A stretch of 64,000 bases of DNA, from the NCBI GenBank assembly GCA_963737265.1, contig CAVTRY010000017.1:32001-96000 (forward strand), written 5' to 3'. Position 1 is the first letter of the stretch, and every line of letters starts with the position of its first letter. The notes below the pieces were generated by a model. The model did not search any database. It was not told the DNA's origin and saw only the letters and a list, made by a program, of their open reading frames with translations. Origin of the DNA: an uncultured delta proteobacterium (lineage in GTDB: Bacteria; Myxococcota_A; Polyangia; Fen-1088). The position numbers and the translations under genes were made by a program. This document shows, in pieces, positions 27,012-33,802 of the stretch.

Positions 27012-27195
27012 CGTTCGAGTCGTGCCTCAAGACCCGCCGGATCAGGCGGAAAGTGACAGGGGATATATCGTACCTGGCTCCTCTGCTGAGCGACAATTAC
27101 ATCTCCCCAAAGACGACAGCTACGTCGCCCCGCTTTGAGGCGCGACGGTGACCGTGAGGTAGACCTCCAAGCCCGCAAGCGGGCAGGAGGCACCT

Positions 27196-28695
27196 TTGAA
27201 GCCGGTCACCGACGCCCAAGTGAGGCGTTTGATGGAAGAGATGAGCAAGATTGGAAAAGTAGGCCAGGCCGCCATGAAGGCGGGCATGGACCGGAAGACA
27301 GGGCGGCGATACATCGCCGCGGGCAAGCTACCGTCGGAGCTACGGCAGCCGCGGTGGTGGCGGACGCGCCCTGACGCGTTCGCCGAGGACTGGCCAGCCG
27401 TGGCCAAGTTGCTGGAGGAAACGCCTGGGCTGGAGGCTCAGACGGTGCTGGAGCTGCTGGAGGCGAAGCAGCCAGGGCGGTACAACGAGAGCCATCTTCG
27501 GACAATGCAGCGGCGAATCCGTCGCTGGCGGGCCGAGCATGGTCCTGCGCGTGAGATTTGGTTCACGCAGGCGCATCGGCCCGGTGAAGCCGCGCAAACC
27601 GACTTCACGTCGACGGCGGAGCTTGGTGTGACGATCGTGGGCCAGCTATTTGTGCACCTTTTGTGCGTGACGGTGCTGCCGTACTCGAACTGGCAATGGG
27701 CGACCGCGTGTCTGTCGGAGTCTCTGGCAGCGCTTCGGCGAGGGATCCAGTCGGCGCTGTTCCAGCTTGGGCGGGTGCCGCGATACCACCAAACCGACCA
27801 CTCGACGGCGGCGACACATCAGATCGCTCGCGATGCGGAAGATCGCACTTTCAACGATGAATACAAGGCGGTCATGCGGCACCTCGGAATGGAGCCACGA
27901 ACTACAGCCGTCGGGGCCAAGGAACAAAACGGCGATGTGGAGGCCAGCAACGGCGCGCTCAAGCGTCGGCTTGAACAAGCGTTGCTGGTGCGTGGCAGCC
28001 GCGACTTCGCGGACCAAGACGACTACGAACGCTTCGTAGCCAAGGTGGTCCGCAAAGCCAACGCTTCGCGAGGCCCGCGCGTCGCCGAGGAGATCGAAGC
28101 CATGCGGCCGCTGGTGGTGGAGCGTTTGCCGGAGTACGCAGAAATGACGGCACCTGTGGCGTCGACGAGCACCATCCGGGTCAAGTCGTGCGCCTACTCG
28201 GTGCCGTCGAGGCTGATCGGCGCACGGGTGAGAGTCCGCGTGTTCGAGCACCGAATCGAGGTGTACTACGCCGACAACTTGGAATTGGCCTGCGACAGGC
28301 TGCGAGGCAAGACCGCGCGCATCGACTACCGGCACGTCATCTGGTCTTTGGTGCGCAAGCCGGGCGCGTTTTCTCGCTACGTCTACCGAGAAGAGCTGTT
28401 TCCAAGCGTGACTTTCAGGCGGGCATACGACGCGATCCAGGCGACCAAGCCTGGAATCAAAGGCGACGTTGAATACCTGCGCATTCTTCACCTGGCCGCC
28501 AGCACGATGGAAGCCGATGTCGAGCAAGCGCTCACGACTCTGCTTGCCGATGGGACCATCTTGACGGCGGATGCAACCAAGAAGAGATGCACACAGGCGA
28601 CGGACAGTACCTATCCACCGAGCGTCCCCGCGCTCGAAGCACCGCTGGTCGATCTCGCGTCCTACGACCTGCTCCTCGAACAGGTGGCATCATGA
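27196..28695 (+). CDS. istA: IS21 transposase IstA
   Basis: QTDFT, QTDHS and NGDVEASN DDE motifs, YSVPSRLIG, DYRHVIWSLVRKPGAF. Confidence 0.95.
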   Translation: MKPVTDAQVRRLMEEMSKIGKVGQAAMKAGMDRKTGRRYIAAGKLPSELRQPRWWRTRPDAFAEDWPAVAKLLEETPGLEAQTVLELLEAKQPGRYNESHLRTMQRRIRRWRAEHGPAREIWFTQAHRPGEAAQTDFTSTAELGVTIVGQLFVHLLCVTVLPYSNWQWATACLSESLAALRRGIQSALFQLGRVPRYHQTDHSTAATHQIARDAEDRTFNDEYKAVMRHLGMEPRTTAVGAKEQNGDVEASNGALKRRLEQALLVRGSRDFADQDDYERFVAKVVRKANASRGPRVAEEIEAMRPLVVERLPEYAEMTAPVASTSTIRVKSCAYSVPSRLIGARVRVRVFEHRIEVYYADNLELACDRLRGKTARIDYRHVIWSLVRKPGAFSRYVYREELFPSVTFRRAYDAIQATKPGIKGDVEYLRILHLAASTMEADVEQALTTLLADGTILTADATKKRCTQATDSTYPPSVPALEAPLVDLASYDLLLEQVAS

Positions 28696-29540
28696 CCAAC
28701 GTCTCCGTAGACACGGTCAAGCCGAGCGCGCTCGACGCTCTGCTGGTGCTTCTGCGCGCGCTCAAGCTGCCTGCCTTCACCCGGCACGCCGAGGAGATCG
28801 CGATCAAGGCCAGCCGCGAGGGGTGGACCTTCAGCCAATACCTCCAGCACCTGGCCGAACTGGAAATCGAAGAGCGCCGAACCCGTCGCATCGATCGCGC
28901 GCTTCGCGATTCGGACCTTCCCACGGAGAAAACCCTGGCCACCCTGGAACGTGGTCGGCTGTCACCCAAGGTGATGAAGCAGATGGCGAGCCTGTGTGAG
29001 GGTGGCTTTGTCGAACGTGGGGAGAACCTGCTCGTCTTCGGACTGCCCGGCCGAGGCAAAAGTCACGTTGTGGCTGCCATCGGCCACGAACTCATCCGGC
29101 GCGGCTACCGGGTCCTCTTCACGCCGACCTTCGCGCTTGTCCAGAGGCTGCTGGCCGCCAAGCGCGACCTTCGCCTGGAACGAGAACTGGCCGCGCTCGA
29201 CATCTATCACGCCGTGATCCTCGACGACATCGGCTACGTCCAGCAGAGCCGCGATGAAATGGAGGTCCTTTTCACCTTCCTGGCCGAGCGGTACGAACGC
29301 AAGAGCGTCCTCATCACCAGCAACCTGGTCTTCAGCGATTGGATCCGCATTTTCAAGGATCCCATGACCACCGCCGCCGCCATCGACCGACTGGTCCACC
29401 ACGCGGTCATCCTTGAGATGACCGGCCCCAGCTACCGCAGCGAAGAAGCACGAAAGAGAGGCGTCACCACCCCAGCGACAACTACGACAACTACCGATCA
29501 ACCAACGACAACTACCCCCGACAACAATGGGGCGATGTAA
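28692..29540 (+). CDS. istB: IS21 helper ATPase IstB
   Basis: GLPGRGKSH, ILDDIGY and AAIDRLVHH motifs. ATGA overlap with istA. Confidence 0.95.
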   Translation: MTNVSVDTVKPSALDALLVLLRALKLPAFTRHAEEIAIKASREGWTFSQYLQHLAELEIEERRTRRIDRALRDSDLPTEKTLATLERGRLSPKVMKQMASLCEGGFVERGENLLVFGLPGRGKSHVVAAIGHELIRRGYRVLFTPTFALVQRLLAAKRDLRLERELAALDIYHAVILDDIGYVQQSRDEMEVLFTFLAERYERKSVLITSNLVFSDWIRIFKDPMTTAAAIDRLVHHAVILEMTGPSYRSEEARKRGVTTPATTTTTTDQPTTTTPDNNGAM

Positions 29541-29706
29541 TTGACGTCACCGGGTGAATGTAGTTGACGTCCAGCACTCCTCCGATTTTACAAAACCGGA
29601 AGACAGTTGCGGCCAGGTTAGGCGCCGCAAGCGTTCCCGCGCTGGGCCTCCGACACGACCGCTGGTGAAATCGTCGCGCTACGCGAAGAATCTCGGAAGC
29701 AGTAGA

Positions 29707-30300
29707 TCAGCGCCGCAGGCCGAGGAGGCGCGGAAGATCCGACAAAGCAGTCTCGAGGGTGACGGCTTCTTCGAATTCCCGCACCCGCAAGGCTTCGACG
29801 TCCTCGGTCCGGCTGGCTAGCAGGCGGGCCCTGTCCACGGCCTGGCGCATGGTGGAGTCGTCGATCCAGTTGCTCGGATCTCCGTCGAGCTGAATCGCAG
29901 CGGGCGTCTCGGCCAGAGCGGGCTCCGTGCGCGGCGCGGTCATTGGGACGCCGCTTACCGGGGTGAAGCGCGCCGGGGTCGCCTTGCGTCCTAGCAGCGT
30001 TTCGAGGGTGTTTCGGCATTCCGGGGCCACCTGAAGAAATTGCACGCCCATGCCGTGCGCGCGCTGAGGTTCCTCTGGATTGAACTCGCGGACCCACGTC
30101 ACCCGGCCGGTGCCCCACAGCAGCGGCGGTCCTTTGATGATGGCGATTTCGAAGCGGATGACTGCGCCGACCGCATGGGGATTGCGGCTGGAAAGGAAGA
30201 TTCCCCCGCGGGTCACGTTGGGGGCGAAGCGCTGGATGAAGGTGTCTTCATCGGGATAGCGAAGATGGATGCGGACGAGCGGGGCGTCTGGGGTCGACAC
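29707..30300 (-). CDS. TIGR02266-type PilZ-domain protein
   Basis: NVTRGGIFL, GRVTWVRE and GMGVQF motifs. Confidence 0.8.
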   Translation of the reverse strand: MSTPDAPLVRIHLRYPDEDTFIQRFAPNVTRGGIFLSSRNPHAVGAVIRFEIAIIKGPPLLWGTGRVTWVREFNPEEPQRAHGMGVQFLQVAPECRNTLETLLGRKATPARFTPVSGVPMTAPRTEPALAETPAAIQLDGDPSNWIDDSTMRQAVDRARLLASRTEDVEALRVREFEEAVTLETALSDLPRLLGLRR

Positions 30301-30850
30301 GGCGAGGGAGTATCGGACGGTCGGGGGCGTGGGTCAACCCACGACCGTGGCGCGGGTGCTTCCCTGAAATGGGGGCTGGGGCTTCACCTCGCCCCGCGCA
30401 GGTGGGATCGGAGGGAAAAACAGGGAGGAACGGAGGACCAGAGGGATCACGGGTTGGGTTGACGAGGCGGCGGAGACCCTCGCGAAGTACGGGGACGTGG
30501 AAATTGACGAGCAGGCCAACCGGCAGTCGTAGGAGCTTGAGATAGGTAATGACCTGTGCCAAGTGGACAGGAAGCAACTGCTCTACCGCCTTGACTTCGA
30601 CGACCAAACGGCCTTCCACCATGAGGTCGAGGCGATAGCCGCAGTCGAGGTCAATGCCTTTGTACTGCAGAGGAATCGCGACCTGACGTTGCGTGCGAAA
30701 TCCACGCAGGCCTAGCTCGCGCGCCAGGCAGTGCTCGTAGGCCGACTCAAGCAGCCCGGGACCGAGGTGACGGTGGACTTCGATGCAGGCGGCGATAATT
30801 TGCCCAGTAAAGTCATGCTGTCTCTGATTCTCCGTTCCTCGCTGTTCCAT
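30248..30850 (-). CDS. GxxExxY protein (PD-(D/E)XK nuclease-like)
   Basis: [38 protein letters not shown] and GLLVNF motifs. The frame reads through the TIR. Confidence 0.92.
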   Translation of the reverse strand: MEQRGTENQRQHDFTGQIIAACIEVHRHLGPGLLESAYEHCLARELGLRGFRTQRQVAIPLQYKGIDLDCGYRLDLMVEGRLVVEVKAVEQLLPVHLAQVITYLKLLRLPVGLLVNFHVPVLREGLRRLVNPTRDPSGPPFLPVFPSDPTCAGRGEAPAPISGKHPRHGRGLTHAPDRPILPRRVDPRRPARPHPSSLSR

Positions 30851-30931
30851 ATCTGCGTTTTCGGCGGCACTCCGCCAAAAGTTGCTACCTCACCGAGCCG
30901 CCGGCTGGGCCCCCGTTTCAGGGATGCACCC
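30354..30931 (-). mobile_element. TIR-bounded GxxExxY mini-element, copy 1
   Basis: TIRs GGGTGCTTCCCTGAAATGGGGGC and (rc) GGGTGCATCCCTGAAACGGGGGC match 21/23. Flanked by CCGTGGCGC at 30345-30353 and 30932-30940. Confidence 0.85.
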
Positions 30932-30940
30932 CCGTGGCGC

Positions 30941-31520
30941 GGGTGCTTCCCTGAAATGGGGGCTGGGGCTTCACCTCGCCCCGCGCAGGTGGGATCGGAG
31001 GGAAAAACAGGGAGGAACGGAGGACCAGAGGAATCACGGGTTGGGTTGACGAGGCGGCGGAGACCCTCGCGAAGTACGGGGACGTGGAAATTGACGAGCA
31101 GGCCCACCGGCAGTCGTAGGAGCTTGAGATAGGTAATGACCTGCGCCAAGTGGACAGGAAGCAACTGCTCTACCGCCTTGACTTCGACGACCAAACGGCC
31201 TTCCACCATGAGGTCGAGGCGATAGCCGCAGTCGAGGTCAATGCCTTTGTACTGCAGAGGAATCGCGACCCTGACGTTGCGTGCGAAATCCACGCAGGCC
31301 TAGCTCGCGCGCCAGGCAGTGCTCGTAGGCCGACTCAAGCAGCCCGGGACCGAGGTGACGGTGGACTTCGATGCAGGCGGCGATAATTTGCCCAGTAAAG
31401 TCATCCTGTCTCTGTTTCTCCGTTCCTCGCTGTTCCAGATCTGCGTTTTCGGCGGCACTCCGCCAGAAGTTGCTACCTCACCGAGCCCCCGGCTGGGGCC
31501 CCCGTTTCAGGGAGGCACCC
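30941..31520 (-). mobile_element. TIR-bounded GxxExxY mini-element, copy 2 (gene disabled)
   Basis: Near-identical to copy 1, with start ATG changed to CTG at 31438 and a 1-bp insertion near 31270. Followed by a third CCGTGGCGC at 31521-31529. Confidence 0.85.
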
Positions 31521-32313
31521 CCGTGGCGCTCGCGATGGACAGGCTGAAAAGGCGACGTGCGTTCGCCGTGGTCGCCTCGGCAGCGAGACTCGCAGGAATT
31601 CCTCGGACGTGTGCGAGGGTTTCGAGGGTGCTGACCACGAAGGCCGGTTCGTTGCGGCGGCCGCGATGGGGGACCGGCGCCAGATAGGGAGCGTCAGTTT
31701 CGACCAGGATGCGATCGAGAGGTGCATAGGCTGCCGCCGCCCGCAGGTCGTCCGATTTCTTGAATGTGAGCACGCCTGAAAAGGAGAGATACAGCCCCAG
31801 ATCGAGGTAGCGCTTGGCGTCATTGACGTTTCCGGAAAAACAATGGATGACGCCGCCAGCGTCGGGGATCGCGCCGGCGCCGAGGATGCCGATCGCGTCC
31901 TCATGGGCATCGCGCACGTGGCAGATCACGGGGCGCCCAACCGACGTCGAGAGCGCCAGGAAGCGCTGAAAAACCTCGCGCTGAACCTGGCGCGGCGAGT
32001 GGTCATAGAAGTAGTCGAGGCCGGTCTCGCCGATGCCGACCACGCGCGGATGCTGCGCCAGGGCCTTGAGGATGGTCCAAAACTCGGGAACGACTTTGTC
32101 GGCGTCGTGCGGGTGGATACCGATGGCGGCAAAGATGTCGGGTTCCCTGCTGGCCAAGGCGACCACCCGTTCAGCCGTGGCCAGATCCCCGCCCGAGCCC
32201 ACGCACACCATGGCCACGATGCCGGCGCCGCGGGCGCGCTCGATCACGGCCGGCAGGTCTTGGCGAAAGTCCTCGAAATCGAGATGGGTGTGGGAATCGA
32301 TGATGGCCAGCAC
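31507..32313 (-). CDS. tatD: TatD family hydrolase
   Basis: DSHTHLD, GIHPH, IGETGLDY, HCFSG and ETDAPYL motifs. GTG start with a GAGGA RBS. Confidence 0.93.
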   Translation of the reverse strand: MLAIIDSHTHLDFEDFRQDLPAVIERARGAGIVAMVCVGSGGDLATAERVVALASREPDIFAAIGIHPHDADKVVPEFWTILKALAQHPRVVGIGETGLDYFYDHSPRQVQREVFQRFLALSTSVGRPVICHVRDAHEDAIGILGAGAIPDAGGVIHCFSGNVNDAKRYLDLGLYLSFSGVLTFKKSDDLRAAAAYAPLDRILVETDAPYLAPVPHRGRRNEPAFVVSTLETLAHVRGIPASLAAEATTANARRLFSLSIASATGVPP

Positions 32314-32320
32314 GGATTCC

Positions 32321-33802
32321 TCACCCGGTGATCTCGATGCGGCTCGGAACTTTGTGCGGGGCCAAGCGTTTGGCACAGTGATCCAGCATCGCCTTGGGCC
32401 GGCAGCGGCCGCCGGGCGTAACCTGAACCACGATATGGGTCGAACCTTCGTCGTCGTACTCCACACGGGCCAGCGCCGCCTTTACGTTGGCCAGGCCCTC
32501 GAGACAACTCTCGATCTCGCCTAGCGCCACCGAGCGCCGGTCGACCTTCACGATGTCATCCTCGCGGTGGCACAGATGCAGCCGCAGGGAACGGTCGACG
32601 TGTCCGACGTCGCCGGTGCGCAGCCAGCCATCGAGCACGCCACGACCGACCGCGGTGTTCGCCGCGCGCACCGGGAGCGCGGGCAGGAATGTCGTCGAGA
32701 CGCCGGCGCCACGGATCCAAATGGGCCCGACGGTGCCAGGCGCAAGCAGGGCACCAGTGCTACTGGCGACTCGGATCGACACGCCCGCGAAAGGCACGCC
32801 CACCGAGGCTGGCGCAGATCCGTCGAGATCGATGGCAGCCGGACCGGTTTCGCTGCTGTGGTAACACGACAGCACCGGGATCCCGAAACGCTGGCGGAAT
32901 GTGTGCGCAACCTGGGCGGGCAGGGGAACGCCAGAGCAAACGAGATGGGCTGAATGCTTTTGCACGGGCTTGGCATTGGTCAGCCGGGCCAACGCGGCGA
33001 ATTCTCGCGGCGTGGCGGCAAAGAGACCAATGGCTTGGTCGAGAAGGGTTTTCGCCAACCGAGGCACCACCGCGCCGTCGTCGAGAAAAAGCGTGGCCCC
33101 CTGGAAGAGCGCGGCCAGAAGACCGAAATCAAAACCCTGGCAATCGAAAAGTGGCGCTGCGCAAAGCACCCGCGGCTGGGGCGACAGATCGAGGGTCTCT
33201 TCGAGCGCGGAAGCGATCCCGCGCAGCTGCGCCGGCCCGCGCACCACCGCCTTGGGGTCGCCGCCAGAGTCCAAGGTAAATAGCACGACCGCCGCGTCTT
33301 GTGCGGCGGGGAGGCTAGGTCGGGACCAAGGGTAAAGGGTACAGGACAGAAGAGTGCCCGAAATGCGATGGCGACTTTCCGCTGCCAGCCGCGACGTGGG
33401 CGCGTGCCCGTCCAGGCGAAGTGTTCCCAAGGGCGCCGCCAGCGGATCGATTGCGTTGGGCCGGGTCACGAGAGCGCGCAAGGGCGCGGCATCGATGGTC
33501 ATGTCGAGATCCCGCCCGCCGGTGGTGGGATCGATCAGTACCACCACGGCGTCGAGCTTGGATAGCGCGAGAGCAATCACGACGAACTCCGGATCGTTGC
33601 CAAGCATGAGCCCGACCCAATCGCGGGCTTGGATTCCCATCGCGGCGAATTCTTGTGCTCGACGTTCGACGCGATGGAGGAGTCCGCGCCAGGAGAGATA
33701 GGTGTCGCGGAAGATAACGGCATGGCCCGGAGCCGCTCCTGCGAGCCGCCGTTGCACTGCCTTTTCCAACCATTCAAACAGCAGCGACATGTTGCTTGTC
33801 AT
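32321..33802 (-). CDS. Class I adenylate-forming enzyme family protein (degenerate motifs)
   Basis: YHSSETG, WLRTGDVG and LGEIES present, but the P-loop reads LFTLDSGGDPKAV. Confidence 0.75.
   Translation of the reverse strand: MTSNMSLLFEWLEKAVQRRLAGAAPGHAVIFRDTYLSWRGLLHRVERRAQEFAAMGIQARDWVGLMLGNDPEFVVIALALSKLDAVVVLIDPTTGGRDLDMTIDAAPLRALVTRPNAIDPLAAPLGTLRLDGHAPTSRLAAESRHRISGTLLSCTLYPWSRPSLPAAQDAAVVLFTLDSGGDPKAVVRGPAQLRGIASALEETLDLSPQPRVLCAAPLFDCQGFDFGLLAALFQGATLFLDDGAVVPRLAKTLLDQAIGLFAATPREFAALARLTNAKPVQKHSAHLVCSGVPLPAQVAHTFRQRFGIPVLSCYHSSETGPAAIDLDGSAPASVGVPFAGVSIRVASSTGALLAPGTVGPIWIRGAGVSTTFLPALPVRAANTAVGRGVLDGWLRTGDVGHVDRSLRLHLCHREDDIVKVDRRSVALGEIESCLEGLANVKAALARVEYDDEGSTHIVVQVTPGGRCRPKAMLDHCAKRLAPHKVPSRIEITG

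Follow-up and report, generated by a model that had tools for sequence, protein, structure and literature searches.

Tandem copies of a GxxExxY gene cassette at the 3′ end of tatD: a mobile element with ISKra4-type ends, probably moved in trans

The stretch of DNA analysed here, called the window, consists of 64,000 nt of contig CAVTRY010000017.1 in assembly GCA_963737265.1 (positions 32,001-96,000). At the 3′ end of its tatD gene lie two copies of a short cassette that is bounded by terminal inverted repeats (TIRs) and carries a GxxExxY gene. A preliminary description of the window had reported the layout as direct repeat-element-direct repeat-element-direct repeat, with units of about 580 bp and TIRs of 23 bp, and its coordinates and repeats were reproduced. 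The units measure 578 and 580 bp, are ~98% alike, and have a start-to-start spacing of 587-588. Each opens with GGGTGCTTCCCTGAAATGGGGGC and closes with its inverted complement, and the two ends agree at 21 of 23 positions in both copies, as had been claimed. The sole family match inside a unit is GxxExxY/PF13366, in keeping with the earlier statement that no transposase lies there. The features of the locus, including the GxxExxY open reading frames (ORFs), are as follows.

30345..30353, no strand: direct repeat copy 1 (CCGTGGCGC, 9 bp), the promoter-proximal target-site duplication
30354..30931, plus strand: cassette copy 1, 578 bp, with variants of the older subfamily; nearest to the promoter and probably the later insertion
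30354..30376, plus strand: left TIR of copy 1, GGGTGCTTCCCTGAAATGGGGGC
30909..30931, minus strand: right TIR of copy 1, 21/23 against the left TIR
30932..30940, no strand: direct repeat copy 2, between the abutting right and left ends
30941..31520, plus strand: cassette copy 2, 580 bp, a member of the young main lineage; probably the earlier insertion
31521..31529, no strand: direct repeat copy 3
30822..30846, minus strand: inner inverted-repeat arm over codons 2-10, near the ORF start; partner 30419-30443
30419..30443, minus strand: inner inverted-repeat arm directly after the GxxExxY domain; partner 30822-30846
30248..30850, minus strand: GxxExxY ORF of copy 1, 200 aa as read; family domain 30464-30811
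31051..31438, minus strand: GxxExxY pseudogene of copy 2; ATG changed to CTG at 31436-31438, private +1 C near 31269-31271
31507..32466, minus strand: tatD as now read; its final four codons and its stop (GVPP*) come from the right end of copy 2
30309..30337, minus strand: sigma-70-type promoter-like site TTGACC-17-GATACT for the PilZ-domain gene
29707..30300, minus strand: PilZ-domain gene, downstream of the putatively targeted promoter

The tatD gene survives the insertion. Its replacement ending ...SATGVPP*, proposed in the preliminary description, is confirmed, and the TGA sits within the right end of copy 2. Since this end supplies a stop after four codons, tatD stays whole: PF01026 covers 1-253 of 253 profile positions, and the product scores 267.8 bits on TIGR00010 (cut-off 206). 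When the flanks are read without the elements, tatD ends in ...VVG* with its TGA at 30334-30336, again as proposed. An empty allele, which had been suggested as a check, is present in sister species, where tatD ends in ...PPVG* TGA ccc... and is followed by the same PilZ-type gene; these uninterrupted alleles have only ~75% DNA identity to the window. A GATACT box is conserved between the tatD stop and the PilZ-type gene in four sister species. In the window, the -35 hexamer of the PilZ promoter-like site begins 16 nt beyond the left end of copy 1 and overlaps the former tatD stop. An independent promoter scan of 30150-31650 returned TTGACC-17-GATACT (30337-30309) as its sole site, against 0.1 expected.

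The genome to which the window belongs (G000; 6.55 Mb, 25 contigs, 99.5% complete by marker genes) contains many more copies of the unit. A BLAST search, which had been proposed as a check, found copies at 93-100% identity: 31 of full length (the tandem pair included) and 8 that are truncated or interrupted. The matches end exactly at the inverted repeats, and the 9-bp repeat stays outside. Perfect 9-bp duplications, different in sequence at each place, flank the element at 28 of 30 independent sites; the two imperfect ones are a duplication of 10 bp and one that matches at 7/9 beside an old copy. The expectation that the gene moves as a unit is thus borne out at 39 loci with target-site duplications, and the 579-bp unit is a mobile transposable element. 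Two copies are identical to the 579-bp consensus and four differ from it by one base, so that the activity of the cassette is recent. The older subfamily comprises four copies with 31-40 differences from the consensus.

Several copies have been altered after arrival or copied by other means. At G000:C23:162554-164571 and G000:C20:14118-16133, a 1435-bp insertion sequence (IS) of the IS4 family, the same in both cases, interrupts a cassette copy; it makes duplications of 10-11 bp and is nested near the cassette ends. Two further copies (G000:C14:364347-365200 and 367115-367967) have an identical left flank, and therefore a ~2.8-kb segmental duplication has taken a cassette copy along; the second of these breaks off at position 559.

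An autonomous IS that shares these ends, the search for which had been proposed as a check, was found in metagenomes, and an intact relative resides in G000. Scanning G000 with the 23-bp end (up to 5 mismatches) gave 74 matches, 73 of them in cassette copies, and no non-cassette element. The same end sequence picked out 16 stretches on 12 contigs of a metagenome collection. In four of these contigs, two identical inverted 23-bp ends lie 2.0-2.15 kb apart around ORFs of 463 and 142 aa, and the 463-aa ORF (contig L054) scores 241.7 bits on NF033572, the ISKra4 family (cut-off 205). These ISs are devoid of GxxExxY and match the cassette only at positions 1-54 and 556-579. In one of these ISs, the transposase-distal end has 93% identity to positions 1-54 of the cassette. 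A tblastn search of G000 with the metagenomic transposase yielded one full-length match (C20:67126-68523, 73% identical), and it was through this protein, not through the end-sequence search, that the resident IS was located; it had escaped the scan because it differs from the left-end query at 6 positions. The resident IS (G000:C20:66979-69098, 2120 bp) has the ends GGGTGCCTAACCGAAACGGGGGA and GGGTGCCTACCTAAACCGGGGGT, each 19/23 identical to the cassette right end, and is bounded by the perfect 9-bp duplication GGAAAGCGG, equal in length to the duplications of the cassette. Its transposase is an intact 466-aa ORF (256.9 bits on NF033572), and its contig also bears cassette copies. Inverted repeats of 23 bp with the form 5′-GGG...CCC-3′ and 9-bp duplications fit the published ISKra4-type range.

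The middle of the cassette has other relatives. Homologous GxxExxY cassettes occur in sister genomes, at one locus in G005 (91% identity) and at two loci in G009 (81-84%); they match positions ~57-539, terminate in stop codons of their own, and are devoid of the outer ends. Since the ends match an IS and the middle matches these end-less relatives, the 579-bp element is a chimera in which a GxxExxY cassette sits within IS ends. The inner arms of the element (25 nt, 88% complementary) bracket this end-less cassette, and in the predicted folding of the transcript strand they pair with each other in the minimum-energy as well as the centroid structure (z = -2.9).

Other observations concern the parent family. 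A second ORF of 141-142 aa is conserved downstream of the transposase (G000:C20:68536-68961, which is L082:1837-2262, and L054:1671-2099) and has no Pfam or NCBIfam match. In the species-genome collection, the scan for the exact end found one solitary end without a partner (L011 4563-4585, G018:C51, and L017), at the 3′ end of a 177-aa gene; G018 belongs to another genus of the family, and no partner was seen within 7 kb. G000 also holds a second ISKra4-like IS of 1782 bp, with 10 full copies at 99.7-100% identity, 9-bp duplications, and ends starting GGGTGGGTTGCACGGG. It was considered as the mobiliser and rejected: its ends agree with those of the cassette only in the first five bases, and its protein shares 29.5% identity with the transposase that the end-matching ISs encode. 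By eye, TGGACA is seen exactly 16 nt outside its right end in two of ~8 copies (G000:C23:239150 and G000:C16:231273), which suggests that this IS also seeks -35 boxes.

The choice of target resembles that of a known group of transposases. According to Guerillot et al. 2014 (PMC3942029), prokaryotic Mutator-like transposases including those of ISKra4 act on inverted repeats of 18-39 bp with a terminal C and make direct repeats of 8-9 bp. The same authors report that insertions of TnGBS, of ISLre2, and of some ISKra4-group elements lie 15-17 nt upstream of sigma-A -35 boxes, most often at 16 bp from the right inverted repeat. Among the 30 left flanks of the cassette, six contain TTGAC, always exactly 16 nt from the end and never at the other 59 offsets; in the right flanks it occurs once at offset 16 and once at offset 32. 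Five further left flanks match TTGACA at 4/6 positions in register. The promoter-proximal end of the cassette is the one homologous to the transposase-distal IS end, and the same end faces the promoter in the elements of PMC3942029. The trinucleotide TCA lies 18-20 nt left of the element at 8 of 30 sites (binomial P 1e-9 against its genome frequency, for a motif spotted post hoc). Its reading as a host stop codon was rejected, as an open frame of ≥100 codons ends there at no site other than tatD; the motif is the reverse complement of a -35 box and not a host gene end.

The GxxExxY product matches TIGR04256 at 141.3 bits (cut-off 35) and PF13366 PDDEXK_3 at 139.3 bits (cut-off 22). The motif itself is legible as G32-L-L-E35-S-A-Y38, and D75 together with E85-x-K87 forms a candidate nuclease core. 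The protein is a predicted PD-(D/E)XK-type nuclease and is probably active. No solved structure matches it in sequence at E up to 1, and the few publications retrieved on the family do not deal with mobility and give its function as unknown. The statement that the element carries a GxxExxY gene stands for copy 1, the ORF of which is intact, and falls for copy 2, which is dead owing to its CTG start and the +1 C. No stop codon closes the consensus ORF within the element, and the frame continues past the left end into copy-specific tails; in copy 1 it crosses the left end, then the 9-bp duplication and the promoter, and runs into the start of the PilZ gene.

The domain is uninterrupted in 16 of 31 copies, frameshifted in 10, and affected by a lost start or an early stop in five, and the six youngest copies all have an intact ORF. 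Two frameshift alleles are each common to several copies (deletion of 201C in eight and of 111C in five), and hence broken copies have multiplied. Substitutions are about as dense in the coding part (35/387) as elsewhere (18/192), with 22 nonsynonymous and 13 synonymous events, so within the cassette family the ORF drifts about neutrally. Between species, a dN/dS of 0.13-0.39 indicates purifying selection. The protein would thus be useful to something, and not visibly to the spread of the cassette in G000. From the spread of frameshifted lineages, the near-neutral drift, and the sister-species cassettes without these ends, GxxExxY is judged to be a passenger that is not required for movement. 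G000 has 43 GxxExxY matches, all but one within cassette copies. The exception (G000:C22:198377-198724, L014) is a 156-aa open frame of 141.5 bits; its termini are arm-encoded and of the TTECTEG/SVSSASS type, and the ends of the cassette are absent from it.

The explanation that best fits the whole, and that we hold to be highly probable, is that the element is a mobile insertion cassette (MIC), i.e., a gene-carrying miniature inverted-repeat transposable element (MITE), which is derived from an ISKra4-family IS and mobilised in trans. It would consist of the two 23-bp ends and ~50 nt of one subterminal region of such an IS, with a hairpin-armed GxxExxY gene cassette occupying the place of the transposase. 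An ISKra4-group Mutator-like DDE transposase would cut and insert the cassette in trans, leave 9-bp duplications, and favour sites 16 nt upstream of a sigma-70-type -35 box in a fixed orientation. The likeliest source of the enzyme would be the intact resident IS on C20, or an exact-end relative outside the assembly. At tatD, the enzyme would have been aimed at the promoter of the PilZ-domain gene; because the -35 box overlaps the tatD stop, the insertion point falls in the last tatD codons. Two independent insertions from different sublineages into the same 9 bp would then produce the observed layout. The preliminary description had left two options, a non-autonomous cassette with GxxExxY as cargo mobilised in trans, or a GxxExxY protein involved in its own mobility. 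The former is favoured by the identical ends on ISKra4-family ISs, the resident relative, and the promoter-targeting signature, while the latter is disfavoured by the spread of broken lineages and by the presence of the same ends around GxxExxY-free ISs with DDE transposases.

Several points weigh against this explanation. Mobilisation in trans is deduced from shared ends, duplication length, and the -35 register. An exact in-register TTGAC is present at only 6 of 30 sites, and most insertions lie off recognisable promoters. The promoter bias towards one end is ~6 to 1 here, whereas in PMC3942029 ISKra4-group elements with near-perfect inverted repeats had promoters on both sides. The assembly holds no exact-end element besides the cassettes, and the resident IS differs at 4/23 positions. 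Two testable metagenomic ISs have no duplication; these may be chimeric assemblies. Moreover, contigs from four public soil runs stop at the element boundaries and none spans the tandem; their loose ends match other insertion sites.

As for the acting transposase, it is possible, though doubtful, that the mobiliser is not the C20 IS but an exact-end IS that is unassembled, lies on a lost replicon, or is already lost. The metagenomic IS ends are identical to those of the cassette compared with 19/23 for the resident IS, and an assembly in 25 contigs leaves room for such an element. On the other hand, the consensus-identical copies imply very recent movement, the assembly is nearly complete by marker genes and its tblastn search yields one close homologue only, and the resident IS is intact on a contig that bears cassette copies.

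Rather unlikely is a composite of two selfish elements, in which the GxxExxY hairpin cassette is independently mobile or self-maintaining, has entered IS-derived shells at least twice in the genus, and is aided in its proliferation by the nuclease or the hairpin. If true, it would account for the excess of 39 cassette copies over a single parent IS (~39 : 1). GxxExxY cassettes or arm-only relics do occupy two different inverted-repeat shells in the genus, the second of which is formed by the GGGCAGCCCTTTCAAGGTG-ended MITEs. Arm-only relics are present in sister genomes; in G000, the arms alone show no sign of mobility. The GGGCAGCCCTTTCAAGGTG-ended family (214-380 bp) occurs in genomes G003, G004, and G009 at the following loci.

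L005, L012, L013, L028, L029, L033, L039, L043, L044, L047: GGGCAGCCCTTTCAAGGTG-ended MITE loci

These MITEs are always found in the palindromic target GGAACCCT-N5-AGGGTTCC with an apparent 5-bp duplication. Their interiors are unrelated to one another, and several are internally deleted GxxExxY cassettes of which only the arms are left. No transposase-bearing partner was seen in the fragmented G003, G004, and G009 assemblies. A further hairpin without a gene stands straight after the tatD stop in a sister species (L072, G009:C251), where the PilZ gene is not the neighbour; its arms contain CACAGAG/GACACGGAG/AACACAGAG words ~130 nt apart, the arm type of another GxxExxY cassette family.

The tandem at tatD could also go back to a single insertion, either as an assembly artefact or as a duplication of one inserted copy that was later diversified by gene conversion. 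Unequal exchange between the 9-bp repeats could have produced the duplication, and so could a circle that re-integrated together with a 9-bp flank. The broken contigs of the four public runs give the tandem no read-level support. Circles of this superfamily keep 6-10 bp of flank between their ends (PMC3942029), and the junction of right end, 9 bp, and left end at tatD has that form. We nevertheless consider a single insertion improbable. Between the copies there are 9 substitutions and 2 indels, and the variants are diagnostic of different sublineages: copy 1 has six variants common to the older subfamily, while copy 2 combines the common young-lineage variant with one variant seen in two other copies and with two private changes. 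Copy 1 can be told apart by 166A, 469G, and 479A, and copy 2 by its CTG start and +1 C. The preliminary argument that these differences speak against assembly duplication is thereby upheld. In addition, the middle repeat is the site's own duplication, which is not expected from a chimeric join, and targeting by promoter distance predicts reuse of the identical 9 bp. With two insertions, three copies of one 9-bp duplication arise because the 16-nt measure from the -35 box recuts the same 9 bp. A second hit at the promoter-proximal duplication places the newcomer beside the promoter, and hence copy 1 would be the later arrival and copy 2 probably the earlier.

The weakest proposal, that GxxExxY with its PD-(D/E)XK fold itself moves the element and is a new kind of transposase, is very hard to sustain: it can call on the sole ORF of the element being intact in about half of the copies and in all six youngest, on the lack of an exact-end transposase element in the assembly, and on the purifying selection between species, but this hydrolytic nuclease fold is not known to perform strand transfer, frameshifted lineages have multiplied while the ORF drifts neutrally within the family, three of three related sister-species cassettes and the second GxxExxY gene of G000 are without these ends, the same 23-bp ends bound ISKra4-family transposase ISs of which the resident relative makes a 9-bp duplication, and the -35 register is the published signature of ISKra4-type transposases.

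G000 is very rich in ISs. Directly upstream of the PilZ gene, the window contains an IS21-family IS (27077-29587, which is G000:C17:59077-61587) with istA (499 aa) and istB (317 aa); this 2.5-kb IS has ~22 copies in G000. Other multi-copy ISs are of the IS3 (~1450 bp, ~23 copies), ISL3 (~1508 bp), ISAs1 (~1295 bp), IS4 (~1435 bp), and IS1634 (~2054 bp) families.

For the large orphan family GxxExxY, the cassette provides one clear route of spread within a genome, namely hitch-hiking in an IS-derived cassette, and it cautions that repeat-flanked GxxExxY genes need not be self-mobile. It would also extend the promoter seeking of ISKra4/ISLre2/TnGBS transposases to a non-autonomous derivative of high copy number. 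As a side effect of such targeting, a promoter that overlaps the end of the upstream gene would bring the element into the last codons of that gene and let the same 9 bp be hit twice. Moreover, ~39 copies of a stop-less ORF facing downstream promoters and genes may alter the expression of many host genes.

The cassette can be compared with several kinds of known system. MIC231 of the Bacillus cereus group, said to have been described by De Palmenaer et al. in 2004, is reportedly derived from IS231 and has an IS4-family parent. The category of mobile insertion cassette is defined in PMC3129680. With MICs, the present cassette shares IS ends, the absence of a transposase, one passenger gene, the duplication length of the parent IS, and probably reliance on a cognate transposase elsewhere. 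In contrast to MIC231, its parent would be an ISKra4-family (Mutator-like) IS, a single parent IS stands against ~39 copies, a GxxExxY cassette with repeat arms of its own serves as the passenger, and the ORF has lost its stop and reads out of the element.

MITEs are likewise short, of high copy number, bounded by inverted repeats, and flanked by duplications, and they are moved in trans, as the cassette probably is; the cassette differs from them by its protein-coding gene, which is the distinction between a MIC and a MITE. A gene-less 179-bp pair of the same ends is present in metagenome contig L064. The hairpin-armed GxxExxY cassettes share the inner 25-nt arms around the ORF, whereas here the outer IS ends define the moving unit. 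PD-(D/E)XK proteins linked to transposition include TnsA of Tn7 and YhgA/Rpn 'Transposase_31'. GxxExxY, whose family PF13366 is placed in the PD-(D/E)XK superfamily, falls into the same broad class of nuclease folds, but there is no evidence here that it acts on the element ends, and a DDE transposase accounts for all mobility features of the cassette.

In the literature searched, no GxxExxY passenger was found described, and titles and abstracts on ISKra4 and MITE mention no non-autonomous derivative; the supplementary element lists of PMC3942029 may hold a closer relative. The cassette also resembles the promoter-seeking ISKra4 group of PMC3942029, with terminal-C inverted repeats, 9-bp duplications, and insertion 16 nt upstream of a -35 box in common; those elements have their own transposase, whereas the cassette has none. 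Both the MIC category and promoter targeting are already in print, and in every feature tested the cassette agrees with a MIC of ISKra4-family origin and behaves as promoter-seeking members of that group do.

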